Source of the DNA: Synergistales bacterium
GTDB lineage: Bacteria > Synergistota > Synergistia > Synergistales > JAFGMB01
Assembly (NCBI GenBank): GCA_963666205.1
Contig: OY762654.1
Coordinates: forward strand, 2,080,001-2,144,000
Length of the DNA stretch: 64,000 nucleotides
Reading direction: 5' to 3'
The translations under genes and the position numbers were made by a program. Under the pieces are notes generated by a model. That model made no database searches. It was not told where the DNA came from and saw only the letters and a list, made by a program, of their open reading frames with translations. Shown in pieces: positions 12,144-63,141 of the stretch (the stretch's first letter is position 1; each line of letters starts with the position of its first letter).

Positions 12144-12174
12144 GGGGTCAGACCTTGATTTTAACCGTATGTAT
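12144..12174 (+). repeat. GGGGTC-site, subtype A
   Basis: GGGGTCAGACCTTGATTTTAACCGTATGTAT, identical to 19540-19570(-) and 55302-55332. Confidence 0.95.
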
Positions 12175-12254
12175 TCAGTATTAACAAACAGGATGCGCTT
12201 CAGCGTACCGATAAACTGCGGGAATACACCTCTTCTGGTCCTGTCTTTACAGGA

Positions 12255-12857
12255 TCACGAGAGATGCAATAGGCTGAAGGCCGTATATACCAGCAGAATA
12301 CTGAGGGATATATTGATGTACTTCTTCAGTTTCGGGTCGCTTATCGTCCTTTTCAGGGCTGTTCCGCATAGAGCCCATAGAGCTACGGAACTGAAGCCAA
12401 TAATTCCCAGGAGTAACGCCGACATTACAAGAGTTGCAGGTTGACCCGCAAGGGGGTTCAGAAAGGTAGTGTAAAGGGTGATGCCGTAAATTATAACCTT
12501 GACATTTACTACCTGGAGAAAAACTCCCTTTATAAAACCCATCCTTGCTATATCATTATCCCCTTCAAAGGCATAGCTTGATCTGAGGGTCCCGTAGGCC
12601 AGCCACATAATATAGCTGAAGCCGATCCAGCGAAGCCATTGGGATACTGAAGGCAGCAGTTTTATCATAAGGCTGGACATGGTTCCGCAGAGGAGCATCA
12701 TCAGTATGAACCCTGAAGAAACTCCAAGCAGATATGGCAATGATCTGAAAAACCCGAAGACAAGGCCCATGGAGGCGCTGGATACATTGTTTGGTCCGGG
12801 AGTATAAGAGGTTACTGCAACAAAGGTAAGAAGGGGGACAAGGTCAAGGGCTTCCAT
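12255..12857 (-). CDS. LysE-family amino acid exporter
   Basis: TPGPNN motif and multiple TM segments. Start at 12857 follows GGAGG. Confidence 0.88.
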   Translation of the reverse strand: MEALDLVPLLTFVAVTSYTPGPNNVSSASMGLVFGFFRSLPYLLGVSSGFILMMLLCGTMSSLMIKLLPSVSQWLRWIGFSYIMWLAYGTLRSSYAFEGDNDIARMGFIKGVFLQVVNVKVIIYGITLYTTFLNPLAGQPATLVMSALLLGIIGFSSVALWALCGTALKRTISDPKLKKYINISLSILLVYTAFSLLHLS

Positions 12858-12877
12858 CAGGATTGCCTCCATTATCG

Positions 12878-12900
12878 ATTGGATTTAAGATTAGTCCAAT
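12878..12900. promoter_or_regulatory. Possible operator between the divergent lysE-like and ybaK-like genes
   Basis: ATTGGA-N11-TCCAAT inverted repeat. Confidence 0.35.
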
Positions 12901-15236: not shown

Positions 15237-16451
15237 TCAGCCCTTTTGATTCCGGGAATCACTCCATTCCAGGAACCATAGGGAGAAATCGCTGTAGGGA
15301 CTGTAACTTAAATCCATATTGTCCTCTATAAGTTTACGGAACCTGTTCCACCAGTAAGGTTTCCTGTGTTCTGTTATTTCAAGCCCTGAAATAAGGACTT
15401 TCAATTCCTCCAGGTCATATGGCACATGAAAACCCCACTCAGAAGGATCTTCAGAGTTGAACATCAAAGCCAGTATTCCTCTCAGGCATTTTTCACAATA
15501 TCCGCAATTATTCACAGCATTTCCTGACATTTCGTCAAGACAGATCCTGAGGAAAGGTTTTTCAAGATATGGGTGTCTTCTGTAGAAGGATACTATCTCA
15601 GTAACCTTATCTGTCCATATGAGATCTGCATCGGTGTAATCCACCTGAATACCATTGACCTTGAGATTAGGTTCAAGGAAAAGATGGGATCCCCAGGCGT
15701 ACTCTTTACGATGAGTACCAACAGATGATGAAAAAAGGATTTTGTCCCATCCGGAATATGCGGCGAGGGGGAAGGCTAATCCCGCAAGTCCGATACCATG
15801 TTGGACCTTCCCGTACCATGGTTTGAGCTGTGGATATTCCACGTGGATACCTCCGCAGCGAAGAAGTCCGAAGGTGTTGGCGTAGACCTGTCTTGTCCTG
15901 AAATGAAAAATATCGGCAAAATCATTGACCTTTTTCCGTACAGCATTCCATGCATTATCATTATACAGAGAGATATCATGTCCTCTTATTGTAAGCAGTA
16001 CGGTTTCTTCTGGTTCACAGTGCAGGGCGGAACAGGTCGAATCAACTCCTCCTGAGAAAAACAGAACCTGTGAAGGTGTTTTTCCTCTATGTTCTGAGAT
16101 GCTGTTTTTTCTCAGGCCATAAGGGACAAGTTCCCCTTCCCATGGAATTTCCGGGTACATCCTTCTGAAGCCGTCCCGGATCTTTTCAAGACTGCAGAAG
16201 AGGTCTTCATCCATGTTATCGATGCTGTAATTTCCACCCAGGATCCAGAGAAAGGGAGCCACGTTCAGAAGAAATGGGGTTATTAGTATGGAATGGTCCA
16301 ACTCCCTGAGATCGATCTCTCCATCATATCCGACTGAAAAGGGTGCTCGTAAAAAGGATTCCAGAGGAGGTCCTGGAAAAACTGTTACTTTATCAGGATC
16401 TACCTGTACTTTTGAAATAATATTCTTTTCAGTAATTGTTATGGCAGGCAA
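15237..16451 (-). CDS. Hypothetical PP-loop (QueC-fold-like) protein
   Basis: FFSGGVDS and C-x10-CGYCEKC. Confidence 0.6.
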   Translation of the reverse strand: MPAITITEKNIISKVQVDPDKVTVFPGPPLESFLRAPFSVGYDGEIDLRELDHSILITPFLLNVAPFLWILGGNYSIDNMDEDLFCSLEKIRDGFRRMYPEIPWEGELVPYGLRKNSISEHRGKTPSQVLFFSGGVDSTCSALHCEPEETVLLTIRGHDISLYNDNAWNAVRKKVNDFADIFHFRTRQVYANTFGLLRCGGIHVEYPQLKPWYGKVQHGIGLAGLAFPLAAYSGWDKILFSSSVGTHRKEYAWGSHLFLEPNLKVNGIQVDYTDADLIWTDKVTEIVSFYRRHPYLEKPFLRICLDEMSGNAVNNCGYCEKCLRGILALMFNSEDPSEWGFHVPYDLEELKVLISGLEITEHRKPYWWNRFRKLIEDNMDLSYSPYSDFSLWFLEWSDSRNQKG

Positions 16452-16565
16452 TATTTCAGTTCCTTTCGGTTTGTTTCAGGATAAGGACAACAGACATGGC
16501 ATAATAAAGTTTCTCTAAAACTCGCTGTTTTACCCAGGGCCACAAAAAACCGGTAGGGGCCTTTT

Positions 16566-16901
16566 CTAGAGAGGCTCTTCCTCTTCAGTATCGGAGATAC
16601 TTTGTAGCAGAAGTTTTTTACTGAAACTTCCCCGTTGTTCTCTTTTGGTAAACCGTATCTCTTCAAGATCCTCCATGGTACAGCCATGGTGTTCCACGAG
16701 AACATAAAGGATTTCCAGTATATCAGCCAGTTTTTCAAGATCTTCGGAAGCCAGGTATTCCCTTACCACTTCGTCCAGTTTTTTATTCAGTTCTTCTTCG
16801 AATTCTGAAGGATTGAGAACTTTAACATTACACTTCTTGCCGGTCAACTCAATTATTTCAGGGATTTTATCTCGAATAAGCTTGTTATAGATCTTTTCCA
16901 A
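16566..16901 (-). CDS. MazG-like nucleoside triphosphate pyrophosphohydrolase
   Basis: YNKLIRDKIPEII, LADILE, KREQRGSF. Confidence 0.85.
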   Translation of the reverse strand: MEKIYNKLIRDKIPEIIELTGKKCNVKVLNPSEFEEELNKKLDEVVREYLASEDLEKLADILEILYVLVEHHGCTMEDLEEIRFTKREQRGSFSKKLLLQSISDTEEEEPL

Positions 16902-17221
16902 TCTCTATGCCTCCCCGTATGTTATTTCCTTGAATTTATTTTAATAGACCCTATAAGCCAATGTCGCTATTTTATGACACTTTAGGGATTTATGCATATC
17001 CTGAAAACTTAATGTATCCTGGACAGAGCAAACATACTGCAGCAGGGTTGGAACAAGCCATGGACTATTGGGAATGATTCAGATCAGCTTTCCAGGCTTC
17101 ACCATGGTTGAAAGAACCTGAAAATAGAAGAGAGCAGTAGCCTATCTCATCTTTATTGAAATGAAGGATTAATAATGTTAATCTTTGACTACCGACAACC
17201 TTGGGAGGAGGAATTTGATTT

Positions 17222-17677
17222 ATGAGACGCAAAGACAGGGAGATCACCGACATTAAAGAGCTAGAGGCTATACTTGAAAAAGGAACAGTATGTCACCTTG
17301 GTCTGAGTAACGATGATCAGCCCTATGTGGTTCCCATGAATTACGGCTACAACAACGGGTATTTGTATCTTCATTCAGCCCTTGAGGGCCTGAAGGCCGA
17401 TATGGCGAAGAAAAACCCGAAAGTCTGTTTCCAGGTAGATACGGATGTGGAAATAATCTCCAGTCCCGAGGCATGTGAATGGGGTTGCCGGTATAAGAGC
17501 GTAATAGGCACAGGATCGGTGGAATTTCCAGCAGATCCGGAACAGAAAGCAGAAGCTCTTAACATAATCATGGCGCACTACTCAGGAAAGACCTTCGAAT
17601 TCCCTCCCCAGGCCCTTGCAAGGGTCCTTGTCTGGAAGGTTAAAGTGGATACTCTCACAGGCAAGAAGTGCGGATGA
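17222..17677 (+). CDS. Pyridoxamine 5'-phosphate oxidase-like / NimA family flavin-binding protein
   Basis: MRRKDREI, PYVVPMNY, NPKVCF, YKSVIG, TGK. Confidence 0.9.
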   Translation: MRRKDREITDIKELEAILEKGTVCHLGLSNDDQPYVVPMNYGYNNGYLYLHSALEGLKADMAKKNPKVCFQVDTDVEIISSPEACEWGCRYKSVIGTGSVEFPADPEQKAEALNIIMAHYSGKTFEFPPQALARVLVWKVKVDTLTGKKCG

Positions 17678-17738
17678 TGCCTTTCTAAAGGCCAGTTATT
17701 GCTGTAGTTACTGAAATATTTATTGTAATCTCCTTATC

Positions 17739-18317
17739 ATGAGAGTTGAGAATTCATTGGAGGAACATATATTGACCTCTCGCTGTCCCTTAACTTTTAA
17801 GCGTAACAAAGCTTTTACTCTGGTAGAGCTGCTTATAACCATGATTATAATAGGCATCCTGGCCAGCGCTCTCCTTCTGGTGGCTGGAGGGGCAGAGGAA
17901 CGGGCCATGGCCAGCAGGATCCTGGAAGATGCCCGGACCATGAAGTCTGCAGCCCTGTTTTATAATTCCGATCATGACAGCTGGCCCATATGGGTGTTAT
18001 CCGGTCCGAATTACAGGAACATGGTCCCGGGACTTTCTGACGCATTGCCTTCAAAATACGTGGGGCACATCCCTGTGCGTGAGCAGTACTGGTTCGGAGT
18101 AGTTAACGATTCCACAGTTTCCTCCGGGGACGTAAAGGCTGCGGTGGTTCTCTATGATAGTGGACTTTCCTCCGGAGTCCGGAGAAGGATGGGGCTCATG
18201 GCGGAAGAAATGGGTATTTACGCCATGGATGATCCAGCTGCCAGAGATTTTTCCCTGGTCCATACCTATACTCCTTCCGACAGTAATATGATGTGGTTTA
18301 TCACGGCCAGGCCGTAA
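17739..18317 (+). CDS. Type IV pilin-like protein
   Basis: KA|FTLVELLITMIIIGILA prepilin motif with Ala at -1. Confidence 0.85.
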   Translation: MRVENSLEEHILTSRCPLTFKRNKAFTLVELLITMIIIGILASALLLVAGGAEERAMASRILEDARTMKSAALFYNSDHDSWPIWVLSGPNYRNMVPGLSDALPSKYVGHIPVREQYWFGVVNDSTVSSGDVKAAVVLYDSGLSSGVRRRMGLMAEEMGIYAMDDPAARDFSLVHTYTPSDSNMMWFITARP

Positions 18318-18347
18318 AAATAGAGAATATACAAATCTTTCGTTACA

Positions 18348-18373
18348 GGAGGCGGGGATAATTCCCCGCCTTC
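18348..18373. terminator. Hairpin terminator
   Basis: GGCGGGGA-TAAT-TCCCCGCC. Confidence 0.65.
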
Positions 18374-18405
18374 ATTATAGTCTTTACCTGGTTTCCGAAA
18401 TTATT

Positions 18406-18939
18406 TCAGCGGGAACCTTCGGTGAAAGTGTAATTTAGAGGTTTGAGATATTTTGCCATCAGAATGGCCACCAGGGTCAGGAGTGGCAGGGATACCACGT
18501 ATCGGATAACCGTAAAGGGGATTCCCAGGAAGGATATTTCGAAAAGGGTCATGGGGATCCTGCAGATAGCAGAAGCATTTATAAAAGTAAAAAGAACGCC
18601 CAGGGATGCACCCTTTTTTTGAAGGATATAACACAGGGGCAGAGTTACGTACAATCCTCCAACCATGGTCCCTGCAAGGAGAAAGGCCCAGAAATATCCT
18701 TTGAGGCCTGATTCTTCTCCAAGGTGTCTTTCTATCACTTCCCTTTTTACCCATACCTCGAAAAGACCGATCAGGATGAAAGCAGGTGGAAGAACCCCGG
18801 CCATTTCTTTAAGAAATGAAAGGAGGTTAAGGCCGCTTCTCTGTCCGGGAGCAAAACCTGTAAACATGGAAATAACGACAAAAAGAAGAAATCCTGCCAG
18901 AATCATGAGGGAATTTCGTGCTTTCTTCGGGATATTCAT
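18406..18939 (-). CDS. Permease (DUF318/ArsP-like half), subunit 2
   Basis: LIGLFEVWV, KKGAS, FEISFLG; hydrophobic. Confidence 0.8.
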   Translation of the reverse strand: MNIPKKARNSLMILAGFLLFVVISMFTGFAPGQRSGLNLLSFLKEMAGVLPPAFILIGLFEVWVKREVIERHLGEESGLKGYFWAFLLAGTMVGGLYVTLPLCYILQKKGASLGVLFTFINASAICRIPMTLFEISFLGIPFTVIRYVVSLPLLTLVAILMAKYLKPLNYTFTEGSR

Positions 18940-19421
18940 TACAGTATCTCTCCGAAGGCCAGACCGATAGCCAGGGCAACCACAAGGGCTATGACAAAGC
19001 TTGAGATGTTCCTGATCAGTGCCACCTTTGTGCCTAAAAAACTTTTCTCAAGGGGAAAACTTATAAAACCAACCATCATTAAAGTTGTTGTAAAGGCTGC
19101 CAGAACGGTGTAGGGGACACCCTTTTCCAGAAGGATGCCCGCTAGGGGAAATGCCACAAAACCAGGTATGGCGGTAATCGACCCTGTAAGAGCTCCAACA
19201 GCTGTTCCGAACCATAGCCCCTTTCCAGAGAGAACTTCGAGTATCGTCTTTTCAGAGATCAGCCCCAGGCTAAGAGATGTCAGGACGAGAACGGTAATGA
19301 ACACAGGGCATATTCTGCTGAAAATATTCCATGTCTTTTTGAGGGCCTGAAACGTTTTTTTCCTGTTACATAAAAAGGAAATTATCAGCCCTGAAAGGGC
19401 GGCTATCCATAATGGGATCAT
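18939..19421 (-). CDS. Permease (DUF318/ArsP-like half), subunit 1
   Basis: GSITAIPGFVAFPLA, FTTTLMMVG, ALIRN; coupled to subunit 2. Confidence 0.8.
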   Translation of the reverse strand: MIPLWIAALSGLIISFLCNRKKTFQALKKTWNIFSRICPVFITVLVLTSLSLGLISEKTILEVLSGKGLWFGTAVGALTGSITAIPGFVAFPLAGILLEKGVPYTVLAAFTTTLMMVGFISFPLEKSFLGTKVALIRNISSFVIALVVALAIGLAFGEIL

Positions 19422-19539
19422 ATCTATTTCACCTTGCCAGAAAATGAATAGGGGTATCAGGTGTTAATTCTGTATTTTAACAGTTTACTATGATATGGTG
19501 GGTATCTCAAGGGATGAATGTAACCATAGTATTAATAGT

Positions 19540-19570
19540 ATACATACGGTTAAAATCAAGGTCTGACCCC
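19540..19570 (-). repeat. GGGGTC-site, subtype A (inverted)
   Basis: Reverse complement is identical to 12144-12174. Confidence 0.95.
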
Positions 19571-19621
19571 ATTATTACTAAAGTATCGATATACGCTGGA
19601 GATCGATAATTGCTAGCCTTG

Positions 19622-19839
19622 GAAACCCATGACAATTTGAAAAATGTATCATTTTTCCGGGAATGGGAAAAAGTCACAGGCAAGATTACAAAAGTTTGCC
19701 GGTGGCTTGTTTCCATTGCAAACTTGCAAAAATTCCACCTTTGCAGGTATGTCATGGGTTCTGTAAGTAACAAGGTTTTATGATTTCCTCAGCGTACCTC
19801 TGCGTAGACTCAAGTCCTCTGCGTCCCCTGCGGTAAAAT
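19622..19839 (+). repeat. Dispersed repeat Y (~215 bp)
   Basis: Colinear similarity to the reverse complement of 45920-46125. Confidence 0.7.
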
Positions 19840-19875
19840 GGCGTTCTAAAGGGTTGCAACTTTATGTTAATGTTT

Positions 19876-20057
19876 TCCTCCGTGGTGAGAAAGGATTCTT
19901 GGTTTAGCTTAACGCTTCTCGATCGTGAAAAATGGAGTTTCTTTTTTCGCAGCATCACAAGGAGTGTCAAGGGCCGCAGGTCCGACCGTCCACGGTTTGT
20001 TTAGATGGGTTTTGGCGGATTTGTGTCTTTGCGGTGAGATGTTTTTTTGACTTTGAC
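19876..20057 (+). repeat. Dispersed repeat X
   Basis: Shares GTCCGACCGTCC and TTTTGGCGGATTTGTGTCTTTGCGGTGAGAT.TTTTTTGACTTTGA with 26113-26321. Confidence 0.85.
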
Positions 20058-20073
20058 CTCTTTTTTCATTAAT

Positions 20074-20271
20074 TTACTGCATGAACAGAAAGTAGATAAG
20101 GCCGTGGACCAGTCCGGCGAGGATGGCCCCAAGACCGCACCATTTATGTATCTTCAGAACCCTGGGTCCTTTCATGAACCTGCGGAAAAAGGGTCCGAAT
20201 AACCCTGTTGCTCCTGCTGTCAGCATGAGAATTACCGTTAACCTTCCCGACCATGTAAAAAGACCGAACAT
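20074..20271 (-). CDS. Small membrane protein
   Basis: 65 aa, 2 TM segments, H-x13-H pattern (KIHKW...LVHG); RBS AAGGGGG. Confidence 0.65.
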   Translation of the reverse strand: MFGLFTWSGRLTVILMLTAGATGLFGPFFRRFMKGPRVLKIHKWCGLGAILAGLVHGLIYFLFMQ

Positions 20272-20628
20272 AACTGTTTTCCCCCTTCTGTGTCCTGAAA
20301 TCCATAAAGCCTTTAATATGATACCACGAGGAAGATGTATTCCTTTAATATGTGCTTATTTTATGTGTTTAAAATCTCTGTTATGATGTAAAGACTCCCG
20401 GGATTGGAACTTTGATTAGCCTGGATAGTTTCCGAATGCAAGGGAAGGGTGATAGATTTGCTGCCTATTCCTTTTACCTGCTTCTTCTGTATTTGTTAAG
20501 GGAGACTTTTCTTCAGAGATGATCCAGCCTCTTTATTGTTCAGGGTATCTGTTGCGGCGTCTTTTGTCTTGACCATTATGAAAACCAGAATAGAACAAGC
20601 CTTGTTCAATACAGAGAGGTGATTACGG

Positions 20629-23202
20629 ATGTCTTGGGAGATTGAGGCCAGAGACCCCAATTTATGGGAAGCATTGTTATCCGTCAGGGGTAACTCTGAC
20701 AGCAGGCTAGCCTTGTTGTCAGCAGAGGGAAGAGAGAGTGCTTTTTCCCAACTGGCGGACTATGTGAGAAGTGCTGCCGTAGACCTGTGCAAATGGGGTA
20801 TCCTTAAAAATCACAGGATCGCCCTTGTAACAGATAACGGTCCCCATGCAGTTACCGCGTTCCTGTCTGTGTTCAGCACATGTACCTGTTTTCCACAGAA
20901 TCCATCCTCCCAGCTGGATGAGTGTATCCGTTATATGGAAGAGAGCGGGGTATCAGGAGTCCTTCACCAGGCAGACCTCGAAACGAATTTCATGGAAGCT
21001 GCATGTCACCTGCAGATTCCTGTCATTTATTTTTCCCCGAAAGATGAATTCCCGGGACTTCTATCTATATCAGATCCGCCCTTCATGAAAGGCCAGGGAG
21101 AAGAAAAACCCTCCGGAGACGATATCGCTATCATCCTCCAGACCTCTGGGACAACTTCCAGGCCTAAAATAGTCCCTTTCTCCCACAAAAGACTCATCGG
21201 GACAGCCCTATCATTTGGGGAGTCTCTCGGCCTGACCGAACAAGACAGGACCGTGAATGTAACGCCTCTTTTTCATGGATACGGGCTGAACACGGTGGTT
21301 CTTGCCACTCTTTTTTCGGGAGGGTCGGTGATTTGCTGCCGGGAGTTCCCCTTTGAAAAATTTCGGGAGATCCTTGAAAAGATGGTTCCGACCTGGTTTT
21401 CAGCTGTACCCACGGTTCTTCAATCCATCGCGGAAGATGCTTCAGGAAGGGAAATAAAGCACAAGCTGCGTTTTATCAGATCAGGTTCCTCAGCCCTTGC
21501 ATCTTCAGTAGCTGATCAGCTGGAAAAGTCCTTCCGTGTTCCCGTTGTTGAGGCATATGCGACCACTGAAACTGTCCTTATAGCAAGTAACCCCGTTGAT
21601 ATGAAGAAAAGAAAGAGGGGTTCTGCAGGTATCCCGGCAGGTTGTGAAGTTGCAATTATGGATCATTCCGGATCTTTTGTTTCTTCTCCCGGAACGGGTG
21701 AAATACTGGTCAAGGGACCCCTCGTGATGTCAGGATATGAAAACAGTCCCGAAGATAATGAAAAAGTGTTCATCCATGGCTGGTACAGGACAGGAGATGA
21801 AGGTTTCCTGGATGAGGAAGGTTTCCTCTATATAACTGGACGGATAAAGGAAATGATCAATCGGGGAGGGGAAAAAGTCTCTCCAGGGGAAATAGATGAA
21901 GTCCTCCTGAGCCACTCCTCTGTAGTTCAGGCCGTTGCTTTCCCGTTCCCCCATGCAACTCTGGGGGAAGATATTGCAGCGGCGGTTGTCCTGCGGGATG
22001 GATATACCCTTACAGGATCTCAACTGAGAACCTTTGTGGCCTCAAAGCTGGCTCCTTTCAAGGTACCCTCAAGGATCGTTATTCTTCCAGAGATACCAGA
22101 GGGACCTACAGGAAAATTTGTCCGTCGCAGTCTGGGCGAACTCATCCATTTTACCGAACCTGATAATCGTCCCATTGAAACTGATAATGAAAAGCTGTTG
22201 GCGGCAATATGGAAGGAAACACTTGGTGTGGACCCTCTGGGAGCTGAAGATGATTTCTTTGCCTCGGGAGGTAACTCCCTTCTTGCAGCCCTTTTAGTTG
22301 TAAATATCCAGACGAAAACCGGAGTAGACATTCCTCTGGCTCATATATACATGGCAAGGACTCTTGCCATGATCGCAAAGGAACTGGATAAACCCCCATC
22401 CCCGGAAATGAATGGAAATATGACTCTTATCAAACATGGTGATCCATCCAGCACCCTTTACTGTGTATTTTCCGAGGAGGACGAAGTTTCTGTGAACTTT
22501 GGAGGGATTGCCTCAACTCTCCAGGAACATGTACGGGTCGCAGGTATTGAAAAACCGGATCCGGAGTATTTCCAGACCATTGAAGAGGAAGCCCTTTATG
22601 TTGCAGAGGAGATCCTCCAGGATCGGCAGGAAGGGCCTTTCCATATTACCGGTTTCTGTTACGGGGGAATGATAGCTTTTAAAGTTGCTCAGATCCTCGA
22701 AGAAAGAGGCCATAAAGTATATTGCTGCCTTATCGATATTCCTTTCTATAAAAGCAGGCTCAGGTATTACCTTGAATACGGTACCTATTTCTGTCTGGCC
22801 AGGTTCAAATGGTTATATTCCCATGGAAATCAGAAATTGAAGGAGAGGTTGAGAAAAAATGCAAGAAAGTTCCACATCAAAACATTCTGGTCAGATCAGG
22901 GGTATTTCAGGGGCCATTGCATACAGATAGCAGGGAAATTTGTCCTCTCCAGCGATCTCTACAACGGATACTCTGAATATTTCATGCAGCATTTCGATCA
23001 TATCGATAATGTCAGCGTTGATAAGGACCATTTGCAGATGCTGAAAGGACCTGCCTCGGTGGAGATAGGCAAAGCCATAAGTCAATGGTTCTGTCAGGAA
23101 AAAGTTTCAACATGCAGAAGTGGAAATCTGATGGAGAGTCCTGATGAGAGTACAGAGAATGACATGGTTCTGGAAAAAACCATATCAGTTCACGGCGGTT
23201 AA
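20629..23202 (+). CDS. Single-module NRPS-like protein (adenylation, carrier and thioesterase-like domains)
   Basis: A domain TSGTTSRPK, EAYATTE, YRTGD, INRGGEK, GPTGK. Carrier DDFFASGGNSL. TE-like GFCYGG and DHLQML. Confidence 0.88.
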   Translation: MSWEIEARDPNLWEALLSVRGNSDSRLALLSAEGRESAFSQLADYVRSAAVDLCKWGILKNHRIALVTDNGPHAVTAFLSVFSTCTCFPQNPSSQLDECIRYMEESGVSGVLHQADLETNFMEAACHLQIPVIYFSPKDEFPGLLSISDPPFMKGQGEEKPSGDDIAIILQTSGTTSRPKIVPFSHKRLIGTALSFGESLGLTEQDRTVNVTPLFHGYGLNTVVLATLFSGGSVICCREFPFEKFREILEKMVPTWFSAVPTVLQSIAEDASGREIKHKLRFIRSGSSALASSVADQLEKSFRVPVVEAYATTETVLIASNPVDMKKRKRGSAGIPAGCEVAIMDHSGSFVSSPGTGEILVKGPLVMSGYENSPEDNEKVFIHGWYRTGDEGFLDEEGFLYITGRIKEMINRGGEKVSPGEIDEVLLSHSSVVQAVAFPFPHATLGEDIAAAVVLRDGYTLTGSQLRTFVASKLAPFKVPSRIVILPEIPEGPTGKFVRRSLGELIHFTEPDNRPIETDNEKLLAAIWKETLGVDPLGAEDDFFASGGNSLLAALLVVNIQTKTGVDIPLAHIYMARTLAMIAKELDKPPSPEMNGNMTLIKHGDPSSTLYCVFSEEDEVSVNFGGIASTLQEHVRVAGIEKPDPEYFQTIEEEALYVAEEILQDRQEGPFHITGFCYGGMIAFKVAQILEERGHKVYCCLIDIPFYKSRLRYYLEYGTYFCLARFKWLYSHGNQKLKERLRKNARKFHIKTFWSDQGYFRGHCIQIAGKFVLSSDLYNGYSEYFMQHFDHIDNVSVDKDHLQMLKGPASVEIGKAISQWFCQEKVSTCRSGNLMESPDESTENDMVLEKTISVHGG

Positions 23203-23257
23203 TGAGACAGAGAGAGAATGAACAAATTCTAAAATATCCTGACAAAGGGGTGCCATC

Positions 23258-24703: not shown

Positions 24704-24781
24704 CAGATATGATTTGAGATCCGTAAGTGGTAAAACTGCTGAAAAGGCAGAAGACTTTTCAGCATGAACAAGCTTCATAAA

Positions 24782-24819
24782 ATCAGGGGGCCTCTATTCT
24801 GATAGCAGGCCCCCTTGAT
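24782..24819. terminator. Hairpin terminator between convergent genes
   Basis: ATCAGGGGGCCT...AGGCCCCCTTGAT. Confidence 0.65.
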
Positions 24820-24881
24820 CATTGTCTACTAATTTCAGGAAATGTAAAAGAATGTTCCTGTAATACCAGGGTGTTCTTCGA

Positions 24882-25877: not shown

Positions 25878-25977
25878 GGAATTACACTCTCCAGACGAAC
25901 AGATTTAAGAAAATTTTCCTGCCGGGTGACATGACTGGAAACATGATTTTCCCACATATCTGGAGTTATTAACAGCA

Positions 25978-25992
25978 TCTGACCCCATTATT
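25978..25992 (-). repeat. GGGGTC-site head (inverted)
   Basis: Reverse complement AATAATGGGGTCAGA is the same 15-mer as at 19562-19576. Confidence 0.7.
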
Positions 25993-26112
25993 GCTTCTGG
26001 CCTGCAGATTTTCCTGGCACAAATCTACGATTTCGTCCCTCCCCAAAACCTGGATCGTAGTGTCCGCTTCAGCCCACCGATAGCCTGAACAATTTCCCCA
26101 AGGGTTATGCCT

Positions 26113-26321
26113 TCCTCTGTGGTGAATCGATTTTGGATTTTTGATTTTATCGTGCAAAACCGGTCCATCATTTTGCGCAGCACACCATTGTTTATGAAAG
26201 TCTTTCCTTCTGGGTCGATGGTTTTCGCACTGAAGGTTTGTGCGAAAGTCCGACCGTCCCCGATTTATTCATGGTTTTTGGCGGATTTGTGTCTTTGCGG
26301 TGAGATATTTTTTGACTTTGA
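26113..26321 (+). repeat. Dispersed repeat X, second copy
   Basis: Direct copy of 19876-20057 with an internal insertion that carries a TTTCGCAC/GTGCGAAA hairpin. Confidence 0.85.
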
Positions 26322-26429
26322 ACTTGTTTCCCTCTATATCTCTTCCACCTGTTTGACAGCATCACTTTACCCGGATATTATGAAAATAGGTAAAATTATT
26401 TATAAAACATACAAAAGGGAGGAAATATC

Positions 26430-26987: not shown

Positions 26988-27070
26988 ACATCTCCTGTTA
27001 TATACCATGGAGGACCCATACCATATAAGTGTGGATCCTGTTCCGGAATATTGCAAAAAGGAGGAATATC

Positions 27071-28141: not shown

Positions 28142-28156
28142 CAAGGGAGTGTTAGT

Positions 28157-28603: not shown

Positions 28604-28679
28604 GGGGGGTATATGTAGATACTCAGGCAATCGGCTTTGGCCATCCTGAATTCTGATCAGAAAGCAGGTAACCAGAGAA

Positions 28680-28907: not shown

Positions 28908-28936
28908 GAAATAACTGAAGTATTTCCCTTTCCGGC

Positions 28937-29031
28937 CTACCCGAACCCGTCCATCCTTTTAAAGTTTAATCCTTGCCCACTGATTCCTCACACCTAATGT
29001 ACGAGGCCTTGCATGCACGGTTTTGTAGTGC
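28937..29031 (+). repeat. Repeat Z, ending in a headless subtype-B' site
   Basis: CTACCCGAACCCGT...ATCCTT...TAATG.ACGAGG...TTTGTAGT, similar to 37316-37410. Confidence 0.75.
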
Positions 29032-29123
29032 TATCCAGTGTGTGGGTCATGTTTAGAAAAGGAGATATCTACATTCTTCTGGTGGAAAATCGTTCTTATT
29101 CGGATACCTGGATCTTAAGATCC

Positions 29124-29561
29124 TTATTTCCTTTCATACATTTTTTTGATGATCTTTTTTCCTGAAGCTGTTTTGAAGTATTTGTCTGCAAAATCCATGG
29201 CAGTATTTTTATCCAAATCCTTTTCTGGTGCATTGACGAGGAAGTCCGCTTCCACAAGTACCTGGAAATCAATGCCATCAATATACTCAAAACTGTGATG
29301 ATGGCCGATGATGAAACACACTCTTTCTATTATGTCTTCATTTATCTGCAGTTTCTCCAGAATACCCCTGGCTACAGGAGGACCTTCGCTTTCCTGGCAT
29401 TTCCAGGCGGAGGTATTGAATTTTCGTTCGCATTCTTTTATGCCAATGTCGTGGAGTATTGCTGTAATGGCGATTATTTTCCGGGTTTCGGGATCGAGGG
29501 ACTCCAGTTCGGATATGGCACTGGCGTAACCGTACACCTTTACTGCATGGTCTATTCTCTT
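29124..29561 (-). pseudogene. 5'-truncated HD-domain phosphohydrolase copy
   Basis: Near-identical to 39572-40009 but lacks the first 17 codons and the RBS. Similarity stops 8 bp before the site at 29570. Confidence 0.88.
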
Positions 29562-29569: not shown

Positions 29570-29623
29570 GGGGTCAGGCCTTGCGTGTACGGTTTTGCAC
29601 AACAAAATAACACCTCGATATTT
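29570..29623 (+). repeat. GGGGTC-site, subtype B
   Basis: GGGGTCAGGCCTTGCGTGTACGGTTTTGCACAACAAAAT, nearly the same as 42591-42629. Confidence 0.92.
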
Positions 29624-29976
29624 AACTAAAACTTTTAAAATAATGTCTTCTGCAAGGGTGGGACGAATGGAGATCAAGCACTATTTTCGATAGATTCCCA
29701 GGGCAGGGTAAATTGTTATCACTGGGAGATCCCCATTTCCTGAACCCGTTTATGATTTTTTAAGTAGACCTGGAGAAAGAATGAACAGTCCTTATCAGAG
29801 AAGAAGATATCCTCCCGATGATCGTCCCTGGATGTTATCTGATGCAGATCACCTGGAACTGAGGCCCCTGATCAAGATCACCCCCATTGTTGTTGCCCTT
29901 CAGGTCCAGTTGAAGTCCAGCGGGTGGATCTTTAAGCTGTTTTCGCATCCATTGACCAGTTCTGGGCCGTTAAACA

Positions 29977-35802: not shown

Positions 35803-35811
35803 GGTGTCCTC

Positions 35812-39390: not shown

Positions 39391-39444
39391 ATGGCTGAAT
39401 TTAACTTCGATATTATCAAACACTTTGGAACCTTATCCGAATAA
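39391..39444 (+). pseudogene. 5' stub of a YdbC/PC4-like DNA-binding protein gene
   Basis: RBS AGGAGG, then MAEFNFDIIKHFGTLSE*, resembling YdbC N-termini from memory. The stop lies 1 bp before the site at 39446. Confidence 0.6.
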
Positions 39445-39445
39445 T

Positions 39446-39479
39446 GGGGTCAAGCCTTGCATGCACGGTTTTGTAGTGC
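39446..39479 (+). repeat. GGGGTC-site, subtype B'
   Basis: GGGGTCAAGCCTTGCATGCACGGTTTTGTAGTGC, one mismatch from 63106-63139. Confidence 0.93.
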
Positions 39480-39571: not shown

Positions 39572-40060
39572 TTATTTCCTTTCATACATTTTTTTGATGA
39601 TCTTTTTTCCTGAAGCTGTTTTGAAGTATTTGTCTGCAAAATCCATGGCAGTATTTTTATCCAAATCCTTTTCTGGTGCATTGACGAGGAAGTCCGCTTC
39701 CACAAGTACTTGGAAATCAATGCCATCAATATACTCAAAACTGTGATGATGGCCGATGATGAAACACACTCTTTCTATTATGTCTTCATTTATCTGCAGT
39801 TTCTCCAGAATACCCCTGGCTACAGGAGGACCTTCGGTTTCCTGGCATTTCCAGGCGGAGGTTTTGAACTTGCGTTCGCATTCCTTTATACCTATGTCGT
39901 GGAGTATTGCTGTAATGGCGATTATTTTCCGGGTTTCGGGATCGAGGGACTCCAGTTCGGATATGGCACTGGCGTAACCGTACACCTTAACTGCATGATC
40001 TATTCTCTTTTTGTCATTCCCGAATGTTGCGATCATTTCTGCTATGGGCAATGGAGACAT
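39572..40060 (-). CDS. HD-domain phosphohydrolase (intact copy)
   Basis: MSPLPIAEM start follows AAGGAGG; H...LHDIG...HHH...EAD. Confidence 0.9.
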   Translation of the reverse strand: MSPLPIAEMIATFGNDKKRIDHAVKVYGYASAISELESLDPETRKIIAITAILHDIGIKECERKFKTSAWKCQETEGPPVARGILEKLQINEDIIERVCFIIGHHHSFEYIDGIDFQVLVEADFLVNAPEKDLDKNTAMDFADKYFKTASGKKIIKKMYERK

Positions 40061-40166: not shown

Positions 40167-40191
40167 AGGGTCAGGTCTTGAATTGCCACAT
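40167..40191 (+). repeat. GGGGTC-site, subtype C
   Basis: AGGGTCAGGTCTTGAATTGCCACAT, similar to 47323-47347. Confidence 0.75.
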
Positions 40192-42590: not shown

Positions 42591-42644
42591 GGGGTCAGGC
42601 CTTGCGCGTGCGGTTTTGCACAACAAAATGATTCCTCTACATTT
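42591..42644 (+). repeat. GGGGTC-site, subtype B
   Basis: GGGGTCAGGCCTTGCGCGTGCGGTTTTGCACAACAAAAT. Confidence 0.92.
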
Positions 42645-43964: not shown

Positions 43965-44020
43965 GGGATCAGGCCTCGCACTCTAGGTTTTATCGTACAG
44001 AAATTCCTCCTCTGCAATTT
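43965..44020 (+). repeat. Degenerate GGGGTC-site, subtype B
   Basis: GGGATCAGGCCTCGCACTCTAGGTTTT...CCTCTGCAATTT. Confidence 0.6.
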
Positions 44021-47320: not shown

Positions 47321-47447
47321 TCAGGGTCAGGTCTTAACTTGCCATATTTGCTCTATATGCTGCTATATCAATAGTTTTTTAAGTTAAGATTCAGCAATTA
47401 TTCTGGCAAAAAAACCTAAAATATGACAAATCAAACCCTGACCCTGA
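47321..47447. mobile_element. REPIN/MITE-like unit made of two inverted subtype-C sites
   Basis: TCAGGGTCAGGTCTTAACTTGCCATATTT versus the reverse-complemented right end TCAGGGTCAGGGTTTGATTTGTCATATTT. Confidence 0.7.
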
Positions 47448-52122: not shown

Positions 52123-52166
52123 AAACAGAAACCGGCACTTCAGATCTGAAGTGCCGGTTTCTGTTT
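52123..52166. terminator. Perfect 44-bp palindrome, probable terminator
   Basis: AAACAGAAACCGGCACTTCAGA|TCTGAAGTGCCGGTTTCTGTTT. Confidence 0.7.
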
Positions 52167-55301: not shown

Positions 55302-55336
55302 GGGGTCAGACCTTGATTTTAACCGTATGTATGCAA
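55302..55336 (+). repeat. GGGGTC-site, subtype A
   Basis: GGGGTCAGACCTTGATTTTAACCGTATGTATGCAA, with a degenerate inverted partner at 55479-55493. Confidence 0.95.
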
Positions 55337-55507: not shown

Positions 55508-55996
55508 CTATCTGTTTTCATACATTTTCTCAATGATCTTTTTCCCTGATTCCGTTTTAAAATGTTTATTAACAAAATCTATAACCGTATTCTTATCCAT
55601 GTCTTTTTCCGGCGCATTCACAATAAAATCTGCTTCCACCAGGACCTGAAAATCCATACCATCAATATATTCAAAACTGTGGTGATGGCCTATGATAAAA
55701 CAGACTCTTTCGATTATGTCTTCATTAATCTGTAATTTCTCCAGGATATTTCTGGCAACAGGAGGCCCTTCCATTTCCTGGCATTTCCACGATGAGTTGT
55801 TATACTTTCTCTCGCATTCTTTTATCCCTATATCGTGGAGTATTGCTGAAACAGCTATTATTTCCCCGGTTGAGGGATCAACTGCTTCAAGTTCGGCTAT
55901 GGCATTGGCGTAACCGTAAACCTTCATCGCATGGTCTATTCTCTTCTTGTCATTCCCGAATATTTCGATCATTTCTCCTATGGGTAGTTGAAACAT
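55508..55996 (-). CDS. HD-domain phosphohydrolase (diverged intact paralog)
   Basis: Colinear with 39572-40060 (LHDIGIKECERK, IIGHHH); RBS AGGAGG. Confidence 0.9.
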   Translation of the reverse strand: MFQLPIGEMIEIFGNDKKRIDHAMKVYGYANAIAELEAVDPSTGEIIAVSAILHDIGIKECERKYNNSSWKCQEMEGPPVARNILEKLQINEDIIERVCFIIGHHHSFEYIDGMDFQVLVEADFIVNAPEKDMDKNTVIDFVNKHFKTESGKKIIEKMYENR

Positions 55997-58934: not shown

Positions 58935-58997
58935 GGGGTCAAACCTTGCACGCAACTCGTCAAGGTCAGAGCTTGATTTTAACCGTATGTATGCAAT
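58935..58997 (+). repeat. Tandem GGGGTC-sites: truncated B' followed by A
   Basis: GGGGTCAAACCTTGCACGCA-ACTCGTCAA-GGTCAGAGCTTGATTTTAACCGTATGTATGCAAT. Confidence 0.9.
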
Positions 58998-59333
58998 CAC
59001 AGTTATATCACTATGCATGTGTACCATATCCTTGAGGATTTGTAAGGAAATGACAGATCCTACCTTAATGAATTACGCACATTTTCTTAATTTTCCCGGT
59101 AAATCAGAATTCTACATGGGAAGCCTGGAGCAGTAGTTCGAATTTATAATGGGAAGTTAAGAAGAATCTGGCTCTTTTCTTTCAGACCTATTTCTACGCA
59201 TTGACTTGGTGAAGGTATGTTTAATTGACACTCTTTCTTTATATAAGTATTCTGTTAAATAAGAATTGAAAGTTGTTTCCTCATTAAATCCATCCGCAGA
59301 TGCCTGCGGTATCCCAAGTCGGAGGTGATACCC

Positions 59334-60887
59334 ATGATAAAGAAAAACAGAAGTTTATCTTTTCGACTGGCGGCATTGGCTGTCCCGTTGCTCTTGATAT
59401 GCCTTTTTATCCATTCCTCACAGGCATCTGCCACGGTCTTCATGAATGTTCCTGATGGATCTGAACTTGAAGAGATCCTGGGCAAATTCGAGACCCTGGT
59501 CGAAAAGACCCGCCAGGAATTCGGTATACCAGGTATGGCTGTTGCCATAATCCAGGACGACGAGGTCGTATATTCAAAGGGGTTCGGTGTAAGGAAGGTG
59601 GGCAAGGACAAACCAGTGACCCCTGAAACAGTTTTTCAGATCGGTTCTACTTCCAAGGCTTTTACCGCAGCCCTGGTGGCAACCCTGGTTGATGAGGGTG
59701 AAGTGGGATGGAAGGATCCTGTGGTCAAGCATCTGCCGAATTTCGTCATGGCTGATCCTTGGGTGACACAGGCTTTCCAGGTACGAGACCTTATGGCCCA
59801 GCATAGCGGGATGAAACAGTATACCGGTGATATCCTTTCACTTATGGGTTACGGAAGGGATGATATTGTACGGTCTACAGCATTTCTTCAACCTGTCTCA
59901 AGTTTCAGATCGGAATTTTCTTATGTTAACAACCTCTGGGTTACAGCTGCTGCTCTGCTGGAGAAAAAAACCGGGAAGAGCTGGGAGCAGAACCTGCAGG
60001 AGAGGATACTGGATCCCCTGGGTATGAAAAACACAACCTTTACAAAAGAAGGCCTGCTGGGTTCACCCGAAGCCACATCACTCCACATACTGGAGAACGG
60101 GAAAGTGGTTCCTCTTGAAGGAGACTGGATCTTTTTTGACTGGTGCTATACCTATGCTCCTGCAGGAGGTATCAATTCGACAGTCATGGACATGGCAAGA
60201 TGGGTTAGATTCCAGCTTGGTGACGGGACTGTTGAGGGTAGAAAGATCCTTTCTCCCCAGAACCTGGAGTATCCCCATCATCCCCAGACTCCAATAGATG
60301 CAAAAAACTCCTACTGTATGGGCTGGTTGAAGTCTGATTTTCAGCCTTATCCCCTGATATGGCACAACGGAGAGACTACGGGATGCAGGACCCTGGTCAT
60401 GATGATGCCTAGGGCGAAATTGGGAATAGTGATCCTCTCAAATCTAGGGACCCGTGCGCCTGAGGGTCTGGGGTTTGCCTTTATGGACATGTATTTCGGC
60501 AATACTCCGGAAAAGGACTATATCTCAAAGGTTCTTAAGGCCTGGAATCGATCAAAAGAAAAGGCGGAGAAGAATGATCTCTCACAACATGCCTGGGTTC
60601 CTGAAGATCGTTCCGTATATGAAGGCATTTACAAAAGTGACTTTTTAGGAAGGGGTACGGTCATTGAGGAGGAGGGATGTCTTTGGTTACAGCTAGGTCC
60701 TCTGGGCCGGCGACTTAGCCTCAATCCCCTGAAACAGGATTTTTTCGCCTGCGAGGTTGAGAGCCTGGGACTTGCGGGGATGGTCCGGTTTAAACATGAT
60801 CCGGATGGAAAGGTCCTGGCCTTTGATATGACCGATGAGGATGGAGACCATTTCACTTCTTTTGTGAAAAAGAGTTCCCTGAAATAA
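59334..60887 (+). CDS. Serine hydrolase, beta-lactamase/PBP-like family
   Basis: SxxK (GSTSK), YxN (YVN), WHNG; signal peptide. Confidence 0.9.
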   Translation: MIKKNRSLSFRLAALAVPLLLICLFIHSSQASATVFMNVPDGSELEEILGKFETLVEKTRQEFGIPGMAVAIIQDDEVVYSKGFGVRKVGKDKPVTPETVFQIGSTSKAFTAALVATLVDEGEVGWKDPVVKHLPNFVMADPWVTQAFQVRDLMAQHSGMKQYTGDILSLMGYGRDDIVRSTAFLQPVSSFRSEFSYVNNLWVTAAALLEKKTGKSWEQNLQERILDPLGMKNTTFTKEGLLGSPEATSLHILENGKVVPLEGDWIFFDWCYTYAPAGGINSTVMDMARWVRFQLGDGTVEGRKILSPQNLEYPHHPQTPIDAKNSYCMGWLKSDFQPYPLIWHNGETTGCRTLVMMMPRAKLGIVILSNLGTRAPEGLGFAFMDMYFGNTPEKDYISKVLKAWNRSKEKAEKNDLSQHAWVPEDRSVYEGIYKSDFLGRGTVIEEEGCLWLQLGPLGRRLSLNPLKQDFFACEVESLGLAGMVRFKHDPDGKVLAFDMTDEDGDHFTSFVKKSSLK

Positions 60888-60981
60888 CCTGCAGTAAAGA
60901 TTGCTTGATGTAACACTGCAACATAACTATGGCCTGATGAATCTGTTTCAGACCTCCGATCCGATGAGAAGGAGTGAAACT

Positions 60982-63003
60982 ATGAGTAATTTCAAAAGAT
61001 ATGTTGTTCTTGTTCCAGTTCTTATTGCGCTTCTGTTTATTCCTTCATGGTACGCTGAGGCCCTGGAGTCAGGGGGGAATTATCCTCAAACCATCTCCAC
61101 AGCCCGGGAGGTTCTGTGGAAGGCCATATCATCAGGTGTTAACTCTGCCACAGTTGCTGTAATGGATGGAGGGAATATCATCTATTCCGAGTGTTTTGGT
61201 CCGGCAGACCGTGCAGAGAACAGGCTGGTGGATGCCAATACCCGTTTCAACATAGGATCCACCAGCAAAATGTTCGTTGCAGTTGCTACCCTGCTGCTTG
61301 TCGACGAGGGCAAGCTCGATCTTGATGACCCTGTGGTCAAATATATTCCGGAATTTACCATGCCTGACGAGCGGTACAGGGATATAACGGTTCGAATGCT
61401 CTTCAACCATTCATCCGGTTTACCGGGTACAACCTTCCTGTTCGGTGAAGATCCGGGCAGGGATCTCTATATGCTTCTTCTGGATAATCTCAAGGAGACT
61501 TATCTGAAGCATGTCCCCGGAGCTATGAGTATTTACTGCAATGACGGTTTTACCCTTGCGGAAATGATCGTGGAACGCCTTTCGGGACAAAAATATATGG
61601 ACTTTATCGATGAAAGGATCTTCAAGCCTCTGGGAATGAAGAACACGGGGCCCAGTATAGGTGAAAGAGGCGGAAATGTTGCGGAGTACTATGATCCCGG
61701 CAATGGAAAGAAATATCCCCTGGAGACGGTGCTGGTCCATGCCGCAGGAGGGCTCTCCTCAACACCGCAGGACCTCTGCCGTTTCGGTGACAGTATGGCT
61801 CCAGGCGGGAATAATATTCTTTCCAGGGCTTCTCTGGAAGAATTAATGAAAGAACAGCCTACAACTTCGGTGGGTTGGTTTAAGGGGAATGCCCTTTATA
61901 ATTCATTCGGTTGGGAACATGCCTGGCTTCCCGACTATAAAGAAAAGGGGTACCAGGTCCTGGGTAAGGGAGGTAATACGGTATATTATTCCACCGGATT
62001 ACAGATACTGCCGTCTGAGAGAATCGCTGTTGCCGTAATAATTTCAGGGCAGGCCAGCGGAGAAGGTCTGACCAGTCCCATTCTGGATGCCCTTATGGAG
62101 GATAAGGGGCTTTTTGACAGGGAAGCACAGGTAGTTGCAAAACCGGTGAAGCCTCAATCTGTTCCCTCCGAGATGCTTCCCTTTGCGGGCTATTATGCAG
62201 ATGAAAAGACGGCTGTACAGTTCGTCTTCGATCAGGAAAAACAGACCCTGAGCATCTATCCCATACTGCCATGCCCTCCTGAAGGGAATGGAGAGAGGGT
62301 ACCTGCGCTGGTGTTGACCTATAACAACGGGTATTTCCATAATTTTGAGAAAAACATGCACTGCTATTTTCTGGAGGAAGAGGGAAATACCTTTCTTGTA
62401 GTTGAGAAGATCCCTGTCTATGGCAGCGATGTCTGGATCTTTCAGAAACTTGAAGAGATGGAAGACCCTGTGAAGCTTTCAGTTGAAATGGATGAATCCA
62501 TCTGGCTCGTGAGAAATATGCCTGCCCTCACCATGGTAGATGACGATCCATTTATGGTCAGGTCTTCCCTAAACCCTGCTATGCCGGGATATCTTTCCTT
62601 CTACGGGGTGGTGAAAATAGACGATCCCGATCATGCAGGCATTGCCGCTACTGCTTTTCGTGATCAGAGGGATCTGGTGCTTTTCCGGAAAAACGGTGAA
62701 GTACGTGTTAAGACGGGATTATTTGTTTTCTCTTGGGAGAATGTGGCCAGGATTCCTGAACCAGGGGTGAACACTGTAACGATCGGTGCTGAGGGAGAGA
62801 ATGAATGGATGAAGGTCGAGTCGGGATCTGTTCTTTCCTTCGAAAAGCCGAAGAATGGGCGTGTTCTCTTAATGTCGGCCGGGAAAGATACACCAATGCT
62901 ATACGACAGCGAGGTTGATAGCGGAGAAATATATGCGCCCGCGGGCAGCTTTATCTTTTTCGCCGGATCTCCGGGGGATGTGTTCGAGGTAAGGGCACGG
63001 TAA
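60982..63003 (+). CDS. Serine hydrolase, beta-lactamase/PBP-like family
   Basis: GSTSK, YCN, KGG. ATG at 60982 follows AAGGAG. Confidence 0.9.
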   Translation: MSNFKRYVVLVPVLIALLFIPSWYAEALESGGNYPQTISTAREVLWKAISSGVNSATVAVMDGGNIIYSECFGPADRAENRLVDANTRFNIGSTSKMFVAVATLLLVDEGKLDLDDPVVKYIPEFTMPDERYRDITVRMLFNHSSGLPGTTFLFGEDPGRDLYMLLLDNLKETYLKHVPGAMSIYCNDGFTLAEMIVERLSGQKYMDFIDERIFKPLGMKNTGPSIGERGGNVAEYYDPGNGKKYPLETVLVHAAGGLSSTPQDLCRFGDSMAPGGNNILSRASLEELMKEQPTTSVGWFKGNALYNSFGWEHAWLPDYKEKGYQVLGKGGNTVYYSTGLQILPSERIAVAVIISGQASGEGLTSPILDALMEDKGLFDREAQVVAKPVKPQSVPSEMLPFAGYYADEKTAVQFVFDQEKQTLSIYPILPCPPEGNGERVPALVLTYNNGYFHNFEKNMHCYFLEEEGNTFLVVEKIPVYGSDVWIFQKLEEMEDPVKLSVEMDESIWLVRNMPALTMVDDDPFMVRSSLNPAMPGYLSFYGVVKIDDPDHAGIAATAFRDQRDLVLFRKNGEVRVKTGLFVFSWENVARIPEPGVNTVTIGAEGENEWMKVESGSVLSFEKPKNGRVLLMSAGKDTPMLYDSEVDSGEIYAPAGSFIFFAGSPGDVFEVRAR

Positions 63004-63105
63004 ACAATGGACAACCCATAGTCCTGGAGCTGTTATTCAATCCTTTATCCTTGTGAATTGACGATGTCAATGGTGCTTTGCTACCATAGGTCCCGTAATA
63101 AAAGC

Positions 63106-63141
63106 GGGGTCAAGCCTTGCACGCACGGTTTTGTAGTGCAA
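63106..63141 (+). repeat. GGGGTC-site, subtype B'
   Basis: GGGGTCAAGCCTTGCACGCACGGTTTTGTAGTGCAA. Confidence 0.93.

Follow-up and report, generated by a model that had tools for sequence, protein, structure and literature searches.

What is the short GGGGTC-headed sequence that recurs between unrelated gene blocks in a 64-kb stretch of a Synergistales chromosome, and what, if anything, uses it? The stretch (the window, G000:C1:2080001-2144000) makes up 2.2% of a genome that consists of one contig of 2.95 Mb; positions below are those of the window unless marked as genome positions, and G000 and G001 denote the bacterium's own genome and that of a congener. An earlier note, made from the letters of this DNA, had taken the repeated sites for recognition ends of an enzyme encoded elsewhere that builds an integron-like array. 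The sites are very probably the terminal inverted repeat (TIR) family of a TIRtron system, whose enzymes (TIRYTs) are RAYT-like Y1/HUH nucleases with a C-terminal helix-turn-helix (HTH) domain, and the accessory zone that contains them would be a mosaic put together at the sites.

The window carries 15 copies of the site (family head GGGGTCAG) in three subtypes, A, B and C, and the dispersed intergenic family described in the earlier note is borne out: all 15 lie outside every open reading frame (ORF) in a map whose 54 ORFs take up 83% of the window and leave 17% intergenic. The sites are ∼40–47 nt long and non-palindromic, and they consist of a 7–9 nt A/T-rich outer part, a GGGGTCAR head, the motif RYCTTG and a subtype-specific core. 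The subtype A 31-mer is exact at 12144+, 19540-19570- and 55302+ and has three mismatches at 58962+; these four matches compare with none in 100 shuffles. The head GGGGTCARRYCTT, with at most one mismatch, has 10 matches in the window, against a mean of 0.89 and a largest value of 4 in 100 shuffles. A repeat finder places subtype B copies at 28998 (headless), 29570, 39446, 42591, 43965, 58935 and 63106, and subtype C copies at 40167+ and 47323+, the latter paired with an inverted copy at 47419-47447. Of the 13 copies from 29 kb onward, 12 lie on the plus strand, so the co-orientation noticed earlier is real, and it is independent of gene direction: most cargo genes between 29 and 59 kb are on the minus strand and the sites on the plus strand. 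Single sites show no self-folding (z +0.3 to +1.2 in six of six folds, made with four sites, two of them on both strands), whereas the inverted C pair at 47323-47447 folds as single-stranded DNA (−16 kcal/mol, z −2.1). Small inverted repeats seen by eye outside some heads are not consistent among copies, and Rfam and tRNA scans of the window gave no matches.

Genome-wide the family numbers ∼33 copies. Of the 44 hits that a profile of 26 copies found at E ≤ 10, 31 were kept and 13 weak ones dropped (no credible head or few positions matched); the copies at 43965+ and 47445- were then added. The clustering that the earlier note had proposed to look for is pronounced, with 15 of the 33 sites in the window (binomial P 8e-17) and 32 of the 33 between 1.05 and 2.15 Mb of the genome. 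A second cluster (G000:C1:1373074-1409992) is made up of five minus-strand A sites; three of the five share a 200–330 nt tail by the core, one such tail overlapping the 3′ end of a 249-aa ORF, and some have a short inverted repeat directly outside the head. At G000:C1:1731560-1732000 a headless B copy lies in an insert of 165 nt, just past a tRNA gene and its terminator, and an A site with a degraded head comes next; the equivalent place in G001 has a clean A site.

The enzyme genes lie at a distance. A genome search with PF01797 (Y1_Tnp) finds three genes, all outside the window. Two of them, TIRYT1 and TIRYT2, are intact, encode proteins of ∼280 aa with a Y1_Tnp domain and a C-terminal HTH_28 domain (PF01797 E 4.6e-13 and 9.9e-10; HTH_28 E 1.6e-6 for TIRYT1 and 4.1e-5 for TIRYT2), and lie 0.44–0.52 Mb from the window. 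All 12 aligned TIRYT proteins share the HUH histidines (H59 and H61) and the tyrosine Y118. A profile of these proteins matches Escherichia coli TnpA_REP (PDB 4ER8, E 7.4e-21); a PDB search with a single TIRYT sequence gave no hits. Against the RAYT equivalog model NF047646 TIRYT1 and TIRYT2 score 77.9 and 62.3 bits, below its 80-bit cut-off, and neither matches the IS200/IS605 transposase model NF033573. The third Y1 gene is a classical RAYT (Table 1), and the genome profile scan found no site of the GGGGTCAR family beside it.

Inverted A sites bracket TIRYT1, the enzyme to which the A-type sites probably belong. The resulting element, TIRtron-1 (G000:C1:1555575-1557458; loci L001/L022), has ∼1.9 kb between its arms, compared with ∼0.9–1.3 kb at other loci, and contains two further ORFs: one of 71 aa that is PC4-like (PF02229) and one of 180 aa without a Pfam or NCBIfam match. 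These were considered as conserved accessory genes and rejected as such: they occur in only two of 14 loci scanned, both TIRtrons of the bacterium's own genus (the congener included), and they are regarded as cargo.

The association of site and enzyme extends to relatives. Inverted repeats surround the TIRYT gene at nine of nine related loci, and a GG(G)GTCAR head is present in the arms at seven of the nine. The TIRYT1 locus of G001 has the same bracketing, with 45-nt A-type arms that are 93% complementary; at two other loci (L024 and L025) the reported arms span the CTTGA core only, and a separate search puts a GGGGTCAG head at the downstream arm of L024. The A-type 31-mer (at most three mismatches) is found in five of 41 genomes, four of which have a TIRYT1-like gene (62–93% identity); the fifth, G035 (93% complete, 60 contigs), gave no TIRYT1-like hit. 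The B-type pattern occurs in five of 21 genomes, all of the same family as the bacterium, and in one of them, G004, it makes up the two arms that flank an intact TIRYT; this protein represents a third lineage and shares ∼49% identity with TIRYT1 and TIRYT2. B-type sites match the TIRs of this third lineage, which is intact in a sister genus and appears here as a relic only. The relic, at 29740-29859, is 19/37 identical to the TIRYT of G003 across conserved N-terminal motifs (tblastn, E 3.7e-5 against the genome) and matches the TIRYT profile at E 2.8e-4; one of 12 TIRYT queries finds it at E ≤ 0.05. Protein queries and the profile revealed no other TIRYT relic. A possible degenerate head at ∼29867-29888(-) adjoins the relic, off the place expected of a proximal TIR and undetected by the profile, and is left uncounted. 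G003 has no intact PC4 gene at the place of the relic.

Two statements of the earlier note are thereby strengthened. The enzyme that it supposed to be encoded in trans would be a TIRYT, and the link that it drew to HUH/Y1 (RAYT-like) genes flanked by GGGGTCAG...CTGACCCC ends is confirmed in this genome and extends to related loci. Its statement that the window lacks a transposase or recombinase needs amendment: Pfam analysis of 58 ORFs and the genome searches show no intact one in the window, but the relic on the minus strand had been overlooked. Tyrosine recombinases (PF00589) number six in the genome and none in the window, the nearest beginning 382 kb past the window end.

Elements of this kind have been known since 2013, and the present system falls within them. 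Di Nocera, De Gregorio and Rocco (2013; PMC3733652) describe, in the part of that paper used here, RAYT-like genes between non-palindromic terminal inverted repeats (TIRtrons, with TIRYTs as enzymes), a common TIR head GGGGWSAS, and "moderately abundant" dispersed TIR families that occur as singles, dimers and clusters. According to the portion of Quentin et al. (2018; PMC6006769) drawn on here, most TIRYTs belong to subclass 2.1 of TnpA_REP, which is recognized by its HTH_23, HTH_28 or Bac_DnaA_C tails. The likeness includes a Y1/HUH gene with a C-terminal HTH domain between non-palindromic inverted repeats at a fixed distance from the start codon, a head (GGGGTCAG) that fits GGGGWSAS, and repeats that are moderately abundant as singles, dimers (47323-47447) and clusters (the tandem at 58935-58992). 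There is no difference in kind; particular to this genome are three TIR subtypes, a TIRtron with two cargo ORFs, the location of nearly half of the family in one plastic zone, and comparative evidence that ties the sites to block boundaries. REP, BIME and REPIN repeats with their RAYTs (REPtrons; PMC8266576, in part) are similar in their homologous catalytic domain (4ER8), in a single-copy, vertically inherited enzyme gene with short intergenic repeats dispersed in trans, and in inverted dimers like the C pair. Unlike them, single sites here are non-palindromic and lack a GTAG or CGTC tag, the enzyme is ∼280 aa with an HTH domain and falls just below the RAYT equivalog cut-off, and there are ∼33 copies rather than hundreds. 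IS200/IS605 elements (IS608, ISDra2; PMC6006769, in part) likewise have a Y1/HUH enzyme, show no target duplications and may favor the lagging-strand template with one element strand; however, the ends here are inverted repeats rather than distinct sequences and lack subterminal hairpins, and the IS TnpA has only ∼130–150 aa.

Comparison with the congener bears directly on what the sites do. Window positions 15267-64000 correspond to G001:C8:295433-350000 in shuffled blocks that cover 62% and 61% of the two spans, and every one of the 14 window sites in the span and of the 12 G001 sites falls at a block edge or in a gap, the association with synteny breakpoints that the earlier note had suggested looking for in relatives. 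Within the collinear stretch 15267-28937 each of the three interruptions of homology abuts a site: the first lies past the head of 19570, the second at 25979, where only the head is present here and a full A site in G001, and the third at 28144/28145, where G001 has 99 extra bp, including an A site, that are absent here. None of the seven site-free intergenic gaps of this stretch is interrupted (our count; Fisher P 0.008). Homology with G001 begins 7–9 nt outside GGGG. In six orthologous A-site pairs we count five changes in 186 core positions, and the interior flanks are ∼83–97% identical; outside the head, five of the six pairs show no homology or only weak similarity. At 63106 an A site in the congener corresponds to a B site here. 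A 1.95-kb insert in G001 (G001:C14:269131-271081; L048 632-2582) lies right after a terminator, and the empty site is found in the bacterium's own genome at G000:C1:1293658-1293660; the cargo of the insert is an ORF of 365 aa, accompanied by two B-type sites and by a TIRYT pseudogene that four stop codons interrupt, and a site with a head marks the right end of the insert. Single-site indels, the A/B exchange and this insert require insertion or replacement, beyond exchange between copies. Taken together, the data show the sites to be conserved TIRs of TIRYT elements that mark where blocks differ.

A third arrangement is found among contigs of four sequencing runs. Metagenome run X1 contains a relative at ∼90% identity whose contigs join 40060>44062, putting the HD gene beside the flavoprotein gene as in G001, and 42499>39443, giving the surface-protein gene, then the B site, then the HD gene, with the breakpoint 3 nt outside the head. 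The module order of X1 is a circular permutation of that in the window, and its contigs skip the 31681-39445 block (joint 31534>40237). In X15, the run of the probable source strain, contigs end at the repeats, and no other joint was seen at any site; as contigs drop rare variants, this result is silent on circles or excision.

The history that best accommodates these facts is one in which TIRYTs, acting in trans on single-stranded DNA, would have spread solo and paired TIRs. Once placed, the TIRs would be portable points at which DNA is broken and joined, whether the enzyme cleaves near the head, copies recombine homologously, or both, and the outcome would be the 29–64 kb accessory zone, a module mosaic whose order and content vary between close relatives. 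In two separate events, one seen in the head-only copy at 25979 and one in the common ancestor of both headless B copies, the break fell precisely at the head/core border, which is a hint, no more, as to the position of the enzyme's nick. With dnaA at 1.635 Mb and the cumulative GC skew lowest at 1.68 Mb and highest near 0.06 Mb, the GGGGTCA strand is on the lagging-strand template at 23 of 27 sites (P 3e-4); six of the 33 are left out of this test, namely the inverted pair of the TIRtron, the inverted C pair, one origin-adjacent site and one weak hit. Ton-Hoang and colleagues are said to have found in 2010 that Y1 elements of the IS608 type are biased towards the lagging-strand template.

Several observations weigh against this history. 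The orientation bias that the earlier note had proposed to look for is suggestive only, since it shrinks to nine of 12 when clusters are collapsed (P 0.15), and five of 12 congener sites in the homologous zone are oriented oppositely. TIRYT2 has a site on one side only, with no recognizable downstream partner, and B, the commonest type in the window, has no intact cognate enzyme in the genome. No target-site duplications were seen. The 99-bp indel may be a gain in G001 or a loss here, and its locus was found in none of three other family genomes. For the left edge of the duplicate, at 29006, the end of homology is explanation enough, without a nick. No TIRYT assay is reported in the consulted parts of PMC3733652 or PMC6006769, so we can only infer that TIRYTs cleave and transpose. 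Finally, plain homologous recombination between copies would equally put breakpoints at repeat boundaries.

The last point also speaks for an alternative in which the sites are old, inactive transposon ends and the reshuffling is due only to RecA-type recombination between their 35–47-nt copies, and between the ∼0.5-kb HD paralogues, in a zone that tolerates change. In its favor, too, many sites are at orthologous places in both species and hence older than their split, and the TIRtron locus is itself orthologous in the two. The intragenomic duplicate 29006-29561 = 39454-40009, in which the first 256 nt are identical and we count ∼11 mismatches in 556 nt, looks like the product of gene conversion between paralogues and would fit such a history. 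We consider it a possible but not the probable account. The rate of change in the site cores is about one-third of that in the flanks, which suggests that something still recognizes them; both TIRYT genes are intact and keep their catalytic residues; and passive recombination would not supply the insertions or replacements seen in the single-site indels and the A/B exchange. The reshuffling taken by itself could be explained equally well by recombination between repeat copies.

The earlier note's own proposal, an integron-like array made by dedicated capture, goes further: the TIRYT would nick at the head and join TIRs, and site-bounded modules would be excised as circles and re-inserted. In its favor, co-oriented sites part unrelated cargo whose content varies between relatives, as in integron cassette arrays; the modules stand in circularly permuted orders (site, HD gene, site, surface-protein gene here; surface-protein gene, site, HD gene in X1 and G001); the two breaks mentioned above fall exactly after GGGGTCAR; and different site subtypes occupy the same place in two species. 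However, there is no IntI, attI, Pc or other sign of an integrase nearby and no attC-like fold, and the cargo is on both strands in multi-gene blocks that range from 0.1 to ∼8 kb; a terminator-like hairpin belongs to at least one of them. The block ends at 31680, 45897, 49141 and 52978 have no site, the enzyme genes are far away and the B-type enzyme is dead here, and no circle or empty-site junction was seen in the contigs, which drop rare variants. Capture of this kind is unlikely, and the array claim of the earlier note is not upheld; no observation shows directed capture rather than rearrangement at dispersed repeats. Other systems with short sites for a trans-acting enzyme at the borders of shuffled modules are the pdif modules of Acinetobacter plasmids, in which XerC/D sites surround gene modules, and the IS91/ISCR HUH elements with their one-ended mobilization; several blocks here similarly begin at a site and end without one. 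The present enzyme, though, is a Y1 protein with an HTH domain, neither Xer nor an IS91/ISCR-type HUH protein, and the setting is chromosomal.

A related idea, to which we give little credence, is that TIRYTs are site-specific single-strand recombinases that place a nick in the lagging-strand template just past GGGGTCAR and join the end to a different TIR. If so, solo TIRs would be portable crossover sites that excise, permute and re-insert modules, a Y1/HUH counterpart of the integron and dif-module systems.

It is highly improbable that the sites are host promoters, operators, terminators, small RNAs or similar regulatory or structural sequences unrelated to transposition. Their strong conservation, their wholly intergenic location and the A site 47 nt upstream of the TIRYT1 start could be read in this way, but they have no fixed relation to their neighbors (they face 3′ ends, 5′ ends and convergent gaps alike), single copies do not fold, and no Rfam family is present in the window. 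Tn3-family ends also begin with GGGG and are ∼38 nt long, but there is next to no chance that the sites, for all this resemblance, are remnant inverted repeats of such a transposon, given that DDE_Tnp_Tn3 has no match in the genome (control genomes gave hits) and that the repeats flank Y1 genes instead.

For the TIRtron interpretation the locus provides a putative cognate pair (TIRYT1 and the A-type TIR), a predicted nick at the head/core border, a dead B-type enzyme and three natural module arrangements with sites where the modules meet. If a TIRYT cuts and joins at these sites, bacterial accessory genes would have in short TIRs a new route of shuffling; if it does not, the zone would be a clear case of dispersed repeats as recombination substrates. 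TIRYTs are a widespread branch of the HUH nucleases.

Table 1. Sites, enzyme genes and interrupted or neighboring genes (window positions unless marked as genome positions; sites are named by the TIR type assigned to them)
Feature	Position	Strand	Remarks
A-type solo TIR	12144..12174	+	Exact 31-mer; a radical-SAM gene and a LysE gene converge on it with their 3′ ends
A-type solo TIR	19540..19570	-	Exact; orthologue G001:C8:299711-299741; congener homology continues 9 nt past head, then ends
Head-only remnant CTGACCCC	25979..25986	-	Full A site at orthologous place in congener; core and 12 nt lost, break between head and core
Headless B copy (core, head replaced)	28998..29031	+	Second copy with same alternative left part at genome 1731659-1731741
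HD-domain paralogue, 5′-truncated	29124..29561	-	Pfam HD E 0.0014; cut 8 nt outside head at 29570
B-type TIR	29570..29603	+	Left edge of multicopper-oxidase block, adjoins TIRYT relic; G001 homology begins 7 nt outside GGGG
TIRYT relic	29740..29859	-	40 codons, profile positions 8-47, PG..ITSR.D..EDIF motif region; ∼140 nt from B site 29570
Possible PC4-like gene start (tentative)	39392..39445	+	17 codons, cut by B site 39446; 10/17 identical by eye to 71-aa PC4-like ORF of the TIRtron; unreported by tblastn
B-type solo TIR	39446..39479	+	X1 contig joint at 39443, 3 nt outside GGGG
HD-domain gene, full length	39572..40060	-	Between B site and C site
C-type solo TIR	40167..40191	+	One mismatch to head; profile E 8.9e-5
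B-type solo TIR	42591..42624	+	Head match and repeat finder
Degenerate B-type TIR, head GGGATCAG	43965..43998	+	71% to reference copy; 25 nt before flavoprotein homology block
Inverted pair of C-type TIRs, REPIN/MITE-like dimer	47323..47447		∼125 nt across; 83% complementary
A-type solo TIR	55302..55332	+	Exact; 175 nt before 3′ end of HD gene
HD-domain gene, third paralogue	55508..55996	-	Pfam and paralogue search
Tandem pair	58935..58992	+	B-type head plus 12 nt (first 20 nt only), then A-type core with degenerate head; G001 block ends 17 nt earlier
B-type solo TIR	63106..63139	+	A-type site at corresponding place in congener
TIRYT1	genome 1556563-1557408	-	Bracketed by inverted A sites 1555575+ and 1557458-; upstream head 47 nt before start codon
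TIRYT2	genome 1642337-1643173		54% identical to TIRYT1; head-bearing site 46 nt upstream of start
Third Y1 gene (L003)	G000:C1:2458074-2458580		Classical single-copy RAYT, 182 aa, NF047646 179.5 bits

Gene breaks at or beside the sites, another point of the earlier note, are confirmed by the truncated HD paralogue next to 29570 and, more tentatively, by the PC4-like gene start at 39446; a flavoprotein fragment also follows the B site at genome position 2148340. The HD gene (162 aa) occurs only in this zone, in two full copies and one truncated copy, and G001 has three copies; the 3′ end of each lies 90–175 nt from a site on the opposite strand. It was considered as the enzyme of the sites and rejected, because it is not a transposase and its three copies, all in the zone, have the character of cargo.

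The 8-kb block at 31681-39445, which encodes MscS, a GntR-aminotransferase, two aminotransferases, an Na/Ca exchanger and an FMN reductase, was not found in the corresponding region of the congener, and parts of it are adjacent in a sister genus. A second repeat occurs at 19876-20047 and 26140-26313, ∼300 nt outside the heads of 19570 and 25986; it consists of 43 nt at 95% identity and ∼130 nt that also match two places in G001, and part of it resembles sequence at ∼1.054 Mb of the genome. A perfect palindrome of 22+22 nt without spacer lies at 52123-52166, in a stretch without a Pfam-supported gene. Between TIR sites at 59325-63003 are two serine-hydrolase genes in tandem (520 and 700 aa; Beta-lactamase family, PF00144), with 83% identity in the congener.

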